A stretch of 64,000 nt of DNA from Escherichia coli (GTDB lineage Bacteria; Pseudomonadota; Gammaproteobacteria; Enterobacterales; Enterobacteriaceae). Both the position numbers and the translations under genes were made by a program. Shown in pieces: positions 22,746-58,213 of the stretch; position 1 is the stretch's first letter; each line of letters starts with the position of its first letter. Below the pieces are notes generated by a model. The model saw only the letters and a list, made by a program, of their open reading frames with translations, was not told the DNA's origin and ran no database searches. The DNA lies in assembly GCF_024298765.1 (NCBI RefSeq), contig NZ_CP101210.1; one strand, written 5' to 3'.

Positions 22746-22836
22746 CGCCTGATGCGCTACGCTTATCAGGCCTACGTGATTCCTGCAATTTATTGAATTT
22801 GTAGACCGGATTAGGCGGTTACGCCGCATCCGGCAT
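22746..22836. repeat. REP/BIME palindromic elements
   Basis: gcctgatgcgctacgcttatcaggcctac and ggcggttacgccgcatccggc motifs between convergent ridA and mgtA. Confidence 0.6.
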
Positions 22837-22893
22837 GAACAAAGCTCACTTTGTCTGCAATCTGATTCCGGGCCACCATGCCCAGTTTATTCT

Positions 22894-25590
22894 TTACTGC
22901 CAACCGTAACGACGGCTATAGAACCCTTTCACCAACTGGGTTAACGTCATATACCCTGCCAGAATCGCAACCAGCCACGGGAAATAGCTCAACGGCAGCG
23001 CCTGCAGCTGCAGATAACTGGCCAGCGGTGAAAACGGCAATACAATCCCGACAATCATCACGATCACGGTCATGATCATTAACGGCCACGATGCACAGCT
23101 CTGAATAAACGGTACACGACGGGTGCGGATCATATGCACAATCAGCGTTTGCGACAGTAATCCCACCACAAACCAGCCCGACTGGAACAGCGTTTGCGTT
23201 TCCGGCGTGTTGGCATGGAATACCCACCACATCAGGCAAAACGTCAGAATATCGAAGATCGAGCTGATCGGTCCGAAGAAGATCATAAAGCGCCCCAGAT
23301 CCGCCGGATTCCAACGCTGCGGCTTTTGAATTTGCTCGTCGTCGACGTTATCAAACGGGATCGCCACCTGTGACACATCGTACAGCAGGTTCTGAATAAG
23401 CAAGTGTAACGGCAACATCGGCAGGAAGGGCAAGAAAGCACTCGCCACCAGCACGCTGAACACATTACCGAAGTTAGAGCTCGCCGTCATTTTGATGTAT
23501 TTCAGCATGTTGGCGAAAGTGCGACGTCCCTCAATAACCCCCTCTTCCAGCACCATCAGGCTTTTTTCCAGCAGGATGATATCAGCCGCTTCACGGGCAA
23601 TATCTACCGCGCCGTCCACAGAAATGCCGATATCCGCAGCACGTAAGGCGGGCGCATCATTAATACCATCGCCCATAAAGCCAACCACATGCCCTTCGCG
23701 CTTCAGTAAGGTCACAATGCGTTCTTTATGCATCGGCGTCAGGCGAGCAAACAGCGTGGTGCGCTGTGCGAGATTTGCCAGTTCGTCGTCAGATAGCGTT
23801 TCAATATCACTACCAATGACCACCTCTCCCGCGTCCAGCCCCACTTCATGGCACACTTTCGCTGCAACTAACTCACTGTCGCCAGTAAGGATTTTTACGG
23901 TAATTCCACTCGCTTTTAATGCCTTCAGTGCCGGAGCAGTTGTCTCTTTGGGCGGATCAAGGAAAGCAATATATCCTTCGAGGATCAGGTCGGATTCATC
24001 CGCCCGCTGGTAATCTCCTTCACGCGCTGGCAGGTATTTCGTCGCCACCGCAACCACGCGCAGCCCCTGACGATTCAGCGTATCAGTAACCCGCTTAATC
24101 TTACGCAGCATGATGTCATCGAGCGGCACAATCTCGCCATTGTGACGCACCTGCGAACACACATTGAGGATTTCCTGCAATGCACCTTTGCAAACCAGCT
24201 GATGGTGTTCGGTATTTTCTGCCACTACCACCGACATCCGACGACGCTCGAAATCAAACGGAATCTCATCAATTTTTTGCCAACGGCTGGCCAGCGAACG
24301 CGCTGACTCTTCATCCGTACCTTCGAGCACCGCGGTATCAAGCAGGTTTTTAAGTCCGGTCTGGTAATGACTGTTCAACCACGCGCTATGCAGCACGCGT
24401 TCGCTGGTTTTACCGGAGATATCGGTATGATTCTCCAGCACAATTTTATCCTGTGTCAGGGTGCCGGTTTTATCAGTGCACAGAATATCCATTGCGCCAA
24501 AGTTCTGAATGGCATCCAGATGCTTGACGATCACTTTCTGTTTCGACAGCTTTACTGCGCCGCGCGCCAGCGTCGAGGTAACAATCATCGGCAACATTTC
24601 TGGCGTTAAGCCTACCGCGACCGAAAGCGCAAACAGTGCCGCTTCCCACCAGTCGCCTTTGGTGTAACCGTTGATAAGCAACACCACCGGAGCCATCACC
24701 AGCATAAAGCGAATCAGCAGCATACTGACGCGGCTAATCCCTTGCTGAAAGGCATTCGGCTCGCTTTCCTGCTCACTAACACGCCCCGCCAGTTGACCAA
24801 ACCAGGTATTGGCCCCTGTGGCAATCACCATTGCTTGTGCCGTACCGCTCACCACGGTGGTGCCCATAAAACACAGGGTGTCGCACTCCAGCGGATTGCT
24901 GTGCTCCGGCTGGCGAGTAGTAGCGGCTTTTTCCACGGGCAGAGACTCACCGGTTAACGACGCCTGAGCGACGAACAGATCCCGCGCCTGCAAGATACGT
25001 AAATCTGCCGGGATCATATCCCCCGCCGCCAGTTTTATAATATCGCCGGGCACCAGCTGGTCGATCGGGATCTCCAGCCAGCCATTTTCGCCTTTGTCGT
25101 TAATTACGCGCAGCACCGTCGCGGTATTGCTGACCATCGCTTTCAGGGCATCTGCCGCTTTAGTGGAACGTGCTTCCTGAATAAAGTTCAGCAACGTAGA
25201 AATAGCGACCATTAGCGCGATAACGCCCGCGGCAAATAAATCTTCCGTGGCGTAAGAAATAGCGCCGAGAATGGTGAGTAAAATATTAAAGGGGTTGCGA
25301 TAGCAGACCCATAAATGTACCCACCACGGCGACGGTTGTTGTGCGGGTAATTTATTTTCACCATGTTGTTCGCGGGCAGATTCCACTTCCGCCTGATTTA
25401 ATCCTTCCGGATGGGTGTCGAACGTTTTCCACAATTCTTCTTCGGGCATCACCGCCATTTTCAGGCAATGCGCACTTAAGGACGGCGGGACCGCCGTATT
25501 CACTGTCTGCTGCGCGCCAGGCAATGGATCGCGATGAACCAGACGGGAAGGTAAATGGCGAATGAACCGGGTAAAAATTTCTTTAAACAT
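22894..25590 (-). CDS. mgtA: Mg2+-importing P-type ATPase
   Basis: 898 aa; CTDKTGTLT phosphorylation motif, TGD and GDGINDAPAL motifs. Confidence 0.95.
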   Translation of the reverse strand: MFKEIFTRFIRHLPSRLVHRDPLPGAQQTVNTAVPPSLSAHCLKMAVMPEEELWKTFDTHPEGLNQAEVESAREQHGENKLPAQQPSPWWVHLWVCYRNPFNILLTILGAISYATEDLFAAGVIALMVAISTLLNFIQEARSTKAADALKAMVSNTATVLRVINDKGENGWLEIPIDQLVPGDIIKLAAGDMIPADLRILQARDLFVAQASLTGESLPVEKAATTRQPEHSNPLECDTLCFMGTTVVSGTAQAMVIATGANTWFGQLAGRVSEQESEPNAFQQGISRVSMLLIRFMLVMAPVVLLINGYTKGDWWEAALFALSVAVGLTPEMLPMIVTSTLARGAVKLSKQKVIVKHLDAIQNFGAMDILCTDKTGTLTQDKIVLENHTDISGKTSERVLHSAWLNSHYQTGLKNLLDTAVLEGTDEESARSLASRWQKIDEIPFDFERRRMSVVVAENTEHHQLVCKGALQEILNVCSQVRHNGEIVPLDDIMLRKIKRVTDTLNRQGLRVVAVATKYLPAREGDYQRADESDLILEGYIAFLDPPKETTAPALKALKASGITVKILTGDSELVAAKVCHEVGLDAGEVVIGSDIETLSDDELANLAQRTTLFARLTPMHKERIVTLLKREGHVVGFMGDGINDAPALRAADIGISVDGAVDIAREAADIILLEKSLMVLEEGVIEGRRTFANMLKYIKMTASSNFGNVFSVLVASAFLPFLPMLPLHLLIQNLLYDVSQVAIPFDNVDDEQIQKPQRWNPADLGRFMIFFGPISSIFDILTFCLMWWVFHANTPETQTLFQSGWFVVGLLSQTLIVHMIRTRRVPFIQSCASWPLMIMTVIVMIVGIVLPFSPLASYLQLQALPLSYFPWLVAILAGYMTLTQLVKGFYSRRYGWQ

Positions 25591-56157: not shown

Positions 56158-58101
56158 ATGATTAAGTTTAGCGCAACGCTCCTGGCCACGCTGATTGCCG
56201 CCAGTGTGAATGCAGCGACGGTCGATCTGCGTATCATGGAAACCACTGATCTGCATAGCAACATGATGGATTTCGATTATTACAAAGACACCGCCACGGA
56301 AAAATTCGGACTGGTACGTACGGCAAGCCTGATTAACGATGCCCGCAATGAAGTGAAAAACAGCGTACTGGTCGATAACGGCGATTTGATTCAGGGGAGT
56401 CCGCTGGCAGATTACATGTCGGCGAAAGGATTAAAAGCAGGTGATATTCACCCAGTGTATAAGGCATTAAATACGCTGGACTATACCGTCGGCACGCTTG
56501 GCAACCATGAGTTTAACTACGGTCTGGATTACCTGAAAAATGCGCTGGCGGGAGCGAAATTCCCTTATGTAAATGCCAACGTCATTGACGCCAGAACCAA
56601 ACAGCCAATGTTTACACCGTATTTAATTAAAGACACCGAAGTGGTCGATAAAGACGGAAAAAAACAGACGCTGAAGATTGGCTATATTGGCGTCGTACCG
56701 CCGCAAATCATGGGCTGGGATAAAGCTAATTTATCCGGGAAAGTGACGGTGAATGATATTACCGAAACCGTGCGCAAATACGTGCCTGAAATGCGCGAGA
56801 AAGGTGCCGATGTCGTTGTCGTTCTGGCACATTCCGGGCTGTCTGCCGATCCGTATAAAGTGATGGCGGAAAACTCAGTTTATTACCTCAGTGAAATTCC
56901 GGGCGTTAACGCCATTATGTTTGGCCATGCTCACGCCGTTTTCCCAGGTAAAGATTTTGCTGATATCGAAGGAGCTGATATCGCGAAAGGCACGCTGAAT
57001 GGTGTTCCGGCGGTAATGCCAGGCATGTGGGGCGATCATCTTGGTGTGGTCGACTTACAACTCAGTAATGACAGCGGTAAATGGCAGGTAACACAGGCGA
57101 AAGCGGAAGCACGACCGATTTACGACATCGCTAATAAAAAATCCCTCGCGGCGGAAGACAGCAAGCTGGTAGAAACACTCAAAGCCGATCACGATGCCAC
57201 ACGCCAGTTCGTCAGCAAGCCAATCGGTAAATCTGCCGACAATATGTATAGCTATCTGGCACTGGTGCAGGACGATCCGACCGTGCAGGTGGTGAACAAC
57301 GCGCAAAAAGCGTATGTCGAGCATTACATTCAGGGCGATCCGGATCTGGCAAAACTGCCAGTGCTTTCAGCTGCCGCACCGTTTAAAGTTGGTGGTCGCA
57401 AAAATGACCCGGCAAGCTATGTGGAGGTGGAAAAAGGTCAGTTGACCTTCCGTAATGCCGCCGATCTTTATCTCTATCCCAATACGCTGATTGTGGTGAA
57501 AGCCAGCGGTAAAGAGGTGAAAGAGTGGCTGGAGTGCTCCGCCGGACAGTTTAACCAGATTGATCCTAACAGCACGAAACCACAGTCACTCATCAACTGG
57601 GATGGTTTCCGCACCTATAACTTTGATGTGATTGATGGTGTGAATTATCAGATTGATGTTACCCAGCCTGCCCGTTATGACGGCGAGTGCCAGATGGTTA
57701 ATGCCAATGCGGAAAGGATTAAGAACCTGACCTTTAATGGCAAGCCAATTGATCCGAACGCCATGTTCCTCGTTGCCACCAATAACTATCGCGCTTACGG
57801 CGGCAAATTTGCCGGTACGGGCGACAGCCATATCGCTTTTGCTTCACCGGATGAGAACCGCTCGGTGCTGGCAGCGTGGATTGCTGATGAGTCGAAACGT
57901 GCGGGGGAAATTCACCCGGCGGCAGATAACAACTGGCGTTTAGCACCAATAGCTGGCGATAAGAAACTGGATATCCGTTTCGAAACCTCTCCATCAGATA
58001 AAGCCGCGGCGTTTATTAAAGAGAAAGGGCAATATCCGATGAATAAAGTCGCGACCGATGATATCGGGTTTGCGATTTATCAGGTGGATTTGAGTAAGTA
58101 A
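56158..58101 (+). CDS. cpdB: 2',3'-cyclic-nucleotide 2'-phosphodiesterase / 3'-nucleotidase
   Basis: [35 protein letters not shown] signal peptide plus metallophosphatase domain; 647 aa from internal Met. Confidence 0.93.
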
Positions 58102-58114
58102 TACACTTCTTTTT

Positions 58115-58213
58115 CGGCCTACAAATCATCAACCGCATCCGACACTTTTGTCGGATGCGATGCTGGCGCATCTTATCCGTCCTACAAGTCATACACCGTA
58201 GGCCGCGCATCCT
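58115..58213. repeat. Degenerate REP-like palindromes
   Basis: cggcctac, gatgcgatgctggcgcatcttatccgtcctac and gtaggccgcgcatcc between convergent cpdB and ytfH. Confidence 0.45.

Follow-up and report, generated by a model that had tools for sequence, protein, structure and literature searches.

GC-rich palindromic sequences occupy several spacers in a 64,000-nt stretch of the Escherichia coli chromosome (contig NZ_CP101210.1 of assembly GCF_024298765.1; hereafter, the window), in a region running from pyrBI–ridA to cpdB–ytfH. An initial annotation, made by reading the sequence, had called them repetitive extragenic palindromic (REP) units, grouped as bacterial interspersed mosaic elements (BIMEs), at six junctions: ridA/mgtA (site 1), nrdD>nrdG (site 2), yjgA/mpl (site 3), ytfQ>ytfR (site 4), msrA>paeA (site 5), and cpdB/ytfH (site 6), where a slash marks convergent and an arrowhead co-directional genes. 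Are these genuine REP/BIME elements and, if so, what might they do for the genes that they separate? In E. coli, no repeats are more abundant than REP/BIME elements, which are also among the longest known. On sequence criteria, the six spacers are genuine REP/BIME elements, and these account for the GC-rich palindromic character of the spacers. We consider it likely, with a probability of roughly 85%, that the REP family is arranged here as BIMEs and acts as RNA hairpins in 3' untranslated regions (UTRs) and intercistronic spacers.

Identity and architecture of the elements

To identify the units, we relied on the reference y, z1, and z2 sequences listed by Durrant et al. (PMC11208160). The y reference (TGCCGGATGCGGCGTAAACGCCTTATCCGGCCTAC) matched the y unit of site 2 with no mismatches, that of site 3 with one, and those of site 1 (minus strand) and site 5 with three each (coordinates in Table 1), and it had no match in 100 shuffles of the window. 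The z1 reference matched exactly at 22747-22776 and not at all in shuffles of the window. An ungapped search with the z2 reference, allowing up to three mismatches, found no match in the window. The z2 units here have either a degenerate head or an indel of 1 nt in the loop; they were recovered with a hidden Markov model (HMM) and by gapped alignment. The y and z2 HMMs were trained solely on K-12 copies at REP325 (yjdM-yjdN), the rayT REPtron, and malE-malF, and are thus independent of the window. They matched 11 units at 15.6-49.3 bits, against a best score of 12.4 bits in 30 shuffles. When each unit was aligned with gaps, identity to the references ranged from 81 to 100%.

Two Rfam families and a de novo search confirmed this picture. 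The family naRNA4 (RF02564, CssrE), which in effect models the z2-y unit of REP325, matched 35965-36042 at 86.2 bits and 42207-42285 at 67.3 bits (gathering score 59.5), while ES036/CssrF (RF02751), in effect a model of the BIME-1 L linker, matched 51269-51311 at 38.0 bits (gathering score 37.6). At a permissive threshold, one or the other touches every claimed site. The de novo repeat search grouped y units from five sites into one family and z2 units into another, and it showed that sites 1 and 5 match each other in inverted orientation over 82 nt. REP-family palindromes can also be seen directly in the sequence at all six spans that the initial annotation had marked.

The units have the fold, placement, and dispersal of REPs. 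Twelve of them, 30-38 nt long, fold as bulged hairpins with free energies of -7.8 to -22.0 kcal/mol, and the GTAG/CTAC foot is present in 10 of the 12 complete units, being degenerate at 32755-32791 (CCTGG) and 4893-4929 (CCTAA). Every unit is intergenic and lies downstream of at least one gene. Intergenic sequence makes up 12.4% of the window, and the chance that seven sites would all fall within it is approximately 4e-7. A 15-kb query bearing REPs was found at a median of at least 37 places per genome, the site 6 family at a median of 13, and the L linker also at 13. These are already-known, ordinary E. coli repeats. The RefSeq record of K-12 MG1655, as consulted, lists no curated REP features, no relevant paper turned up when the literature was searched for REP with ytfQ or nrdG, and the supplementary files of PMC11208160 held no matches for the genes of these junctions.

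As judged from the sequence, sites 1 and 5 are BIME-1 elements, sites 2, 3, and 4 are BIME-2 elements, and site 6 is an atypical, decayed array. Definitions of REPs and BIMEs follow PMC3333891. In BIME-1, a y and a z1 unit stand inverted and head-to-head around a long L linker, in single copy, and this is the arrangement at sites 1 and 5. The extent of site 1 was set by an alignment of three BIME-1-type elements and by its 82-nt inverted match to site 5, whose mosaic is bounded by a flank motif on each side. At site 1, the ES036/CssrF model reaches 35.7 bits on 22768-22813, just below its gathering score, and the y hairpin has a free energy of -17.9 kcal/mol. The third BIME-1-type element lies outside the six junctions, between the convergent genes yjgR and lptG. 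It consists of a z2-like unit (4893-4929), an L linker (approximately 4930-4960), and a flank motif, scores 38.2 bits with the z2 HMM and 29.9 bits with ES036, and is followed by a classical bidirectional terminator hairpin at approximately 5009-5030. The linker sequence caaattcaatatattgc is conserved among all three.

BIME-2 elements vary in copy number and pair inverted y and z2 units over short linkers. This pairing is seen at sites 2-4, where the linkers measure 11-14 nt. At site 2, the y unit begins 22 nt past the nrdD stop codon and stands head-to-head with z2 across a 14-nt linker; the two remnants that follow are 50-55% identical to the references, end 6 nt before the nrdG start codon, and lie within a weak naRNA4 match (35.6 bits over 32758-32834). 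Site 3 contains one BIME-2 unit, z2 and y tail-to-tail, preceded by a truncated y; a stretch of 12 nt in it (TGCCGGATGCGG) exactly repeats the beginning of the intact y at 36011. Site 4 is likewise one tail-to-tail z2/y unit; in the direction in which the operon is transcribed, y lies 25 nt past the ytfQ stop codon and z2 29 nt ahead of the ytfR start codon. Site 6 is a decayed double BIME with an internal period of approximately 63-72 nt. The stem of its hybrid unit has been retained by a compensatory C:G to T:A change, and its third unit, intact in K-12, has a 12-nt internal deletion in the window.

Most of what the initial annotation had proposed holds. Its gene names are correct, and its view that the elements are typical of E. 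coli and explain the palindromic spacers is supported by the references, the independent profiles, Rfam, and dispersal. It had counted four convergent junctions among the six, but there are only three (ridA/mgtA, yjgA/mpl, and cpdB/ytfH); msrA>paeA is co-directional, as are nrdD>nrdG and ytfQ>ytfR, which it had oriented properly. It had placed one element after ytfR; a REP is indeed there, but in the direction of transcription it is downstream of ytfQ and upstream of ytfR. The description of the units as canonical suits most sites but not site 6, with its hybrid and truncated fragments, or the second unit of site 5, a decayed z1. Elements are present at the coordinates that it gave, although the BIME-1 mosaics extend past those bounds, and its list of six lacked the decayed seventh element at yjgR/lptG. 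These errors are descriptive only, concerning orientation, ytfQ versus ytfR, completeness, and boundaries, and not identity.

Variation among strains and insertion at the junctions

To compare strains, the whole region was taken from eight further strains, giving nine with the window, and every junction was extracted. Some spacers are constant: msrA>paeA is 322 nt in all nine strains, ridA/mgtA is 205 nt in seven of them, and yjgA/mpl, at 149-157 nt, keeps its units unchanged throughout. Other junctions vary. The ytfQ>ytfR junction has one to three REP units depending on the strain: a single z2/y unit (139 nt) in five of the nine, shortened units (131-132 nt) in two, a Box C-like repeat with one y unit (212 nt) in ST131, and a Box C-like repeat with y, z2, and y (309 nt) in strain 673. 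At nrdD>nrdG, O157:H7 has one extra degenerate unit, and one strain has a Box C-like repeat instead of any REP. The cpdB/ytfH spacer is either 128 nt or 116-117 nt, as set by a 12-nt deletion. The initial annotation had suggested that copy number be compared at each junction among strains, and the variation at these three is as expected for BIMEs, for which such copy-number polymorphism has been described (PMC3333891).

The small palindromic repeat seen in these strains (ccctcaccctaaccctctccc...gggagaggg) is also present in the window, at 9007-9040 in the pepA>holC spacer. In other strains it replaces or accompanies REPs at nrdD>nrdG and ytfQ>ytfR. We call it Box C-like for its presumed resemblance to "Box C". 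In strain MSHS 133, 1.3 kb of additional sequence looked like a possible insertion sequence (IS) within a REP. It proved to be ISVsa5 (IS4-like), lodged inside the coding sequence of mgtA and unrelated to REPs; apart from it, this strain is identical to the window.

REPs can themselves be insertion targets. For IS621, an IS110-family element with a bridge-RNA recombinase, a natural target and a preference for REPs have been reported (PMC11208160). The target ATCAGGCCTAC (11 nt, with a CT core) occurs exactly at 22765-22775 (+), in the z1 head of site 1, and at 35962-35972 (-), in the z2 head of site 3. Neither copy is occupied in the window. Inside the orthologous z1 head of site 1 in strain UPEC85 lies a 1279-bp IS621, with the junctions ...ATCAGGCCT/TGTATT... 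and ...AGTATCT/ACGTG... (slashes mark the joints), and the insertion point on the target side is ...ATCAGGCCT/ACG.... A query composed of the unique ridA flank, the REP, and the IS end, at a coverage of at least 80%, found this site occupied in 558 of 5426 complete E. coli genomes (approximately 10%). The two z-type heads are therefore natural landing sites for IS621, the first of them filled in about one in ten sequenced strains.

The ridA/mgtA junction also differs among genera. In Kluyvera and Escherichia sp. ESNIH1, it has a plain bidirectional terminator; in Salmonella arizonae, Pseudocitrobacter, and Enterobacter, it has REP pairs of the type proper to each lineage; and in E. albertii, Citrobacter sp. 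FP75, and Pseudescherichia, it has an open reading frame (ORF) cassette. From the first two states, REPs and terminators look interchangeable there. E. coli RIVM_C037134 has a spacer allele of approximately 565 nt with no REP and a 151-aa protein annotated as "transposase", and this cassette is common to E. albertii, Citrobacter sp. FP75, and Pseudescherichia vulneris. The protein was considered as a RayT or IS200 transposase; by eye, it has a helix-turn-helix and a hydrophobic tail, and we regard the whole as a conserved alternative cassette.

In the window, two direct copies of the ridA 3' hairpin, each 23 nt long, stand one on either side of the BIME-1 of site 1. In E. coli SCPM-O-B-8794, the two copies are near-perfect. 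The hairpin itself is old, and Citrobacter sp. R56 has a single copy and no BIME at this junction. There is an outside chance that the duplication is the footprint of an insertion process that targets and duplicates a host terminator hairpin. Examples of such a process would be template switching, or staggered processing at a hairpin extruded while the DNA is being replicated. Alternatively, the direct repeat may be an earlier tandem duplication. Comparable host direct repeats were not found at the flanks of the other REP elements; hence, such repeats do not mark BIMEs in general. If the one at site 1 does record an insertion, its sequence would hint at how BIMEs enter new sites; to our knowledge, BIME movement in vivo has never been directly observed.

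Possible roles of the elements

The role that we favor is that of a transcribed hairpin. The elements are non-coding, non-autonomous repeats that persist only where they are tolerated, i.e., downstream of genes. Each would be transcribed within a 3' UTR or, in the nrdDG and ytfQRT-yjfF operons, within an intercistronic spacer. There, the stable hairpins would stop 3'-to-5' exonucleases and bring about a partial termination that depends in part on Rho, and through these two effects the upstream message (nrdD, ytfQ, or msrA) would be favored over the downstream one. At convergent junctions, a single palindromic element could do for both genes what a classical bidirectional terminator would otherwise do. 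In this model, ytfQ>ytfR would be the direct analogue of malE>malF. Two junctions, nrdD>nrdG and ytfQ>ytfR, are candidates for operons in which a REP tunes the expression of one gene relative to the other.

Of the roles considered, this one is the best supported, through a preprint on REP325 together with the predicted folds, the scarcity of terminators in the spacers, and the lack of an intervening promoter-like site. According to the preprint (bioRxiv 10.64898/2026.03.23.713779), REP325 is both a partly Rho-dependent terminator and a stabilizer of mRNA, and tandem gene pairs with a REP are biased genome-wide toward expression of the upstream gene. The same source places approximately 40% of REPs between tandem genes and approximately 60% between convergent genes, with a REP at approximately 30% of convergent junctions; in the window, 4 of 13 convergent junctions bear one. 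Read in the sense of the genes that lead into them, sites 1-4 and 6 fold strongly as RNA, with z scores of -3.0 to -5.8: -3.5 and -3.0 for the plus and minus strands of site 1, -4.0 for the whole region of site 2, -5.8 and -5.2 for site 3, -3.7 for site 4 in the mRNA sense, and -4.8 and -4.5 for site 6. None of the six spacers scanned has a hairpin-plus-T-run terminator lying wholly inside it, and a weak candidate at 36063-36088 overlaps the 3' edge of the yjgA/mpl spacer. Each of the REP-free convergent junctions fbp/yjfF, ppa/ytfP, and paeA/ytfK has a strong bidirectional terminator. Promoter-like sites were found neither between the REPs and nrdG or ytfR nor anywhere within the six spacers. 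The genes msrA and paeA may be separate transcription units, which is consistent with a match to the Rfam family STnc450 upstream of paeA (51391-51448, +; above the gathering score).

Several points weigh against this role. A regulatory function for these particular elements is argued by analogy, and the preprint itself reports that variance was large and that REPs did not generally affect half-life (bioRxiv 10.64898/2026.03.23.713779). In some strains, REPs are absent at nrdD>nrdG or ridA/mgtA with no obvious harm, so any function would have to be dispensable or replaceable. Site 5 (z of -1.8) and the extra site (z of -0.9 and -2.2) fold weakly and are decayed, and they may do nothing. As to how the elements arrived, the literature holds that the spread and rearrangement of REPs are probably the work of RayT, a REP-associated tyrosine transposase whose activity has been described (PMC3333891). 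However, a rayT gene could be detected in no more than 3575 of 5426 complete E. coli genomes, which makes current mobility uncertain.

A possible but less probable explanation is that the elements are selfish or neutral passengers, found at the 3' ends of genes only because selection removes insertions made elsewhere. The truncated, internally deleted, and decayed units of the window would fit such an origin, as would the differences in presence and copy number, the strains in which REPs are swapped for other repeats or for the ORF cassette, the different lineage-specific REPs gained by the same junction in other genera, and the existence of a dedicated transposase, RayT. Passengers would not be expected to keep a stem by compensatory change, as site 6 has done, or to leave several of the spacers unchanged in length across all nine strains or most of them. 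Nor do the six spacers offer a convincing alternative terminator beyond the one weak candidate at the edge of yjgA/mpl, and experiments show that REP325 and others alter expression (bioRxiv 10.64898/2026.03.23.713779).

Compared with the hairpin role, it is also rather unlikely that these are mainly sites for proteins that act at the level of DNA. The L linkers of sites 1 and 5 would bind integration host factor (IHF), the BIME-2 elements of sites 2-4 would bind gyrase, and DNA polymerase I (Pol I) would bind as well; relief of supercoils between convergent or highly transcribed genes would be the function, and effects on RNA would be incidental. The L linker of BIME-1 has been reported to carry an IHF site (PMC3333891), BIME-2 has been reported as a site of gyrase binding and cleavage (cited in PMC3184786), and binding of Pol I to BIMEs is likewise on record in these sources (PMC3333891; PMC3184786). 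In the window, the conservation of the L linkers among the three BIME-1-type elements and their repetition genome-wide agree with this, as do the three of six sites between convergent genes, where positive supercoils accumulate. The other three sites, however, are co-directional or intercistronic; copies have also persisted in a decayed state, and there are strains that lack the elements.

We think it very improbable that the elements are genes for trans-acting small RNAs (sRNAs), i.e., naRNA4/CssrE and CssrF/ES036, that organize the nucleoid together with HU. Matches above the gathering score to naRNA4 at sites 3 and 4 and to ES036 at site 5 could be read in this way, and most REPs have been reported as transcribed (PMC4550694). 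However, a match to an Rfam model establishes membership in a family and not function as an sRNA, and these two models represent a BIME-2 unit and a BIME-1 linker. Deletion or over-expression of REP325/naRNA4 had no measurable effect on nucleoid compaction, and no REP-REP contacts were seen (bioRxiv 10.64898/2026.03.23.713779). The six spacers also lack a promoter-like site of their own. For annotation, these spacers should be labeled as REP/BIME and not as sRNA genes, despite the Rfam names. Finally, ordinary intrinsic terminators or chance GC-rich palindromes would account for hairpins at gene ends but are ruled out by the exact matches to published REPs, the independent HMMs, the shuffles without a match, the lack of T-runs, and the many copies per genome.

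Genomic context and comparison with known systems

Gene annotation in window coordinates was transferred from E. coli strain 13P477T, to whose chromosome window positions 22000-37000 are 100% identical; of 5426 complete E. coli genomes, 5405 contain most of this interval. The genes of the six junctions and the elements between them are collected in Table 1.

Table 1. Positions of REP/BIME elements, their units, and flanking genes in the window.
Feature	Position	Strand	Remarks
Extra site, yjgR/lptG, convergent	4893-4997		decayed BIME-1-type; y unit deleted
ridA	22302-22688	+	transferred annotation
ridA-proximal hairpin (TCCGGGCTATCATGCCCGGATTA), copy 1 of direct repeat	22701-22723	+	repeat comparison
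Site 1, ridA/mgtA, convergent	22723-22857		complete BIME-1: right flank motif, z1, L linker, y, left flank motif
Site 1 z1 unit	22747-22775	+	reads tail...CCTAC; exact match to published z1
Site 1 L-type linker (gtgattcctgcaatttattgaatttg), 25 nt	22776-22800		aligns to site 5 L linker
Site 1 y unit	22801-22835	-	GTAGAC... on + strand; y HMM 32.9 bits; 32/35 vs published y
mgtA-proximal hairpin copy (TCCGGGCCACCATGCCCAGTTTA)	22867-22889	+	19/23 identical to copy 1, 166 nt downstream
mgtA	22894-25590	-	transferred annotation
nrdD	30545-32683	+	transferred annotation
Site 2 y unit, nrdD>nrdG, intercistronic	32706-32740	+	35/35 vs published y; 49.3 bits
Site 2 z2 unit	32755-32791	-	z2 HMM 40.5 bits; 33/37 vs z2; head CCAGG instead of GTAGG
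Site 2, two internally deleted REP remnants	32797-32834		short direct matches to intact units
nrdG	32841-33305	+	transferred annotation
yjgA	35365-35916	+	transferred annotation
Site 3 truncated y, tail half only; yjgA/mpl, convergent	35943-35960	+	y HMM 7.3 bits
Site 3 z2 unit	35962-35999	-	39.4 bits; 35/38 vs z2
Site 3 y unit	36011-36045	+	47.9 bits; 1 mismatch to published y
mpl	36074-37447	-	transferred annotation
ytfR	40672-42174	-	transferred annotation
Site 4 z2 unit, ytfQ>ytfR, minus-strand operon	42204-42241	-	38.5 bits; 33/38 vs z2
Site 4 y unit	42254-42288	+	39.4 bits (y HMM)
ytfQ	42314-43270	-	transferred annotation; encodes periplasmic binding protein
msrA	50549-51187	+	transferred annotation
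Site 5, msrA>paeA	51215-51359		BIME-1-type mosaic, orientation opposite to site 1; extent from alignments
Site 5 y unit	51234-51268	+	35.1 bits (y HMM)
Site 5 L linker, 35 nt	51269-51303		ES036/CssrF 38.0 bits, above gathering score
Site 5 z1 unit, decayed	51304-51334	-	25/31 identical (81%)
paeA	51510-52853	+	transferred annotation
cpdB	56159-58102	+	transferred annotation
Site 6, cpdB/ytfH, convergent	58108-58217		atypical, decayed BIME array
Site 6 truncated units	58115-58144 and 58199-58217		REP fragments
Site 6 intact y/z2 hybrid unit	58149-58185	+	20.6 bits z2, 10.4 y; 31/37 (84%) vs z2
ytfH	58219-58599	-	transferred annotation

Other features of the window were noted in passing. Rfam matches above the gathering score include Ysr276 at 8041-8235 (-), antisense within pepA; the Mg2+ riboswitch of the mgtA leader at 25683-25798 (-); and ES239 at 56035-56157 (-), just upstream of cpdB. 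A frameshifted yjgL pseudogene has at least seven tandem 18-nt units (CCTGCGAGTTATTTAACT-like) at 17064-17225. At the ppa/ytfP junction (44111-44489), the window strain is without the chpS-chpB toxin-antitoxin pair of K-12, O157:H7, and others, and Nissle has esiB at this position; one strain has a relBE-like pair after nrdG. Between ytfE and cycA, which are adjacent in K-12, approximately 2 kb (61392-63372) contain one hypothetical gene and one pseudogene.

The finding is of little importance in itself, as the junctions behave as the literature describes. Like other E. coli REP units of the y, z1, and z2 types, those of the window are bulged palindromes of 30-38 nt with a GTAG/CTAC foot, extragenic and present in many copies. 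They depart from the typical unit in the degenerate heads of the site 2 z2 and the extra-site unit, the decayed z1 of site 5, the hybrid of site 6, and the truncated remnants. Sites 1 and 5 resemble BIME-1 (RIP/RIB) in having y, L, and z1, conserved outer flank motifs, and a single copy, whereas the z1 of site 5 is decayed and the extra site is without y and carries a unit of z2 length. With respect to IS621, the sites in the window are exact in sequence to the natural target and differ from the occupied orthologues in being empty. Sites 2-4 pair y with z2 over short linkers, as do the BIME-2 elements REP325 (yjdM-yjdN, the source of naRNA4) and malE-malF. However, each of these sites has one BIME unit, while REP325 has six in tandem. 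The likeness to malE-malF extends further at site 4, which likewise comes after the gene for the periplasmic binding protein in an ABC-transporter operon.

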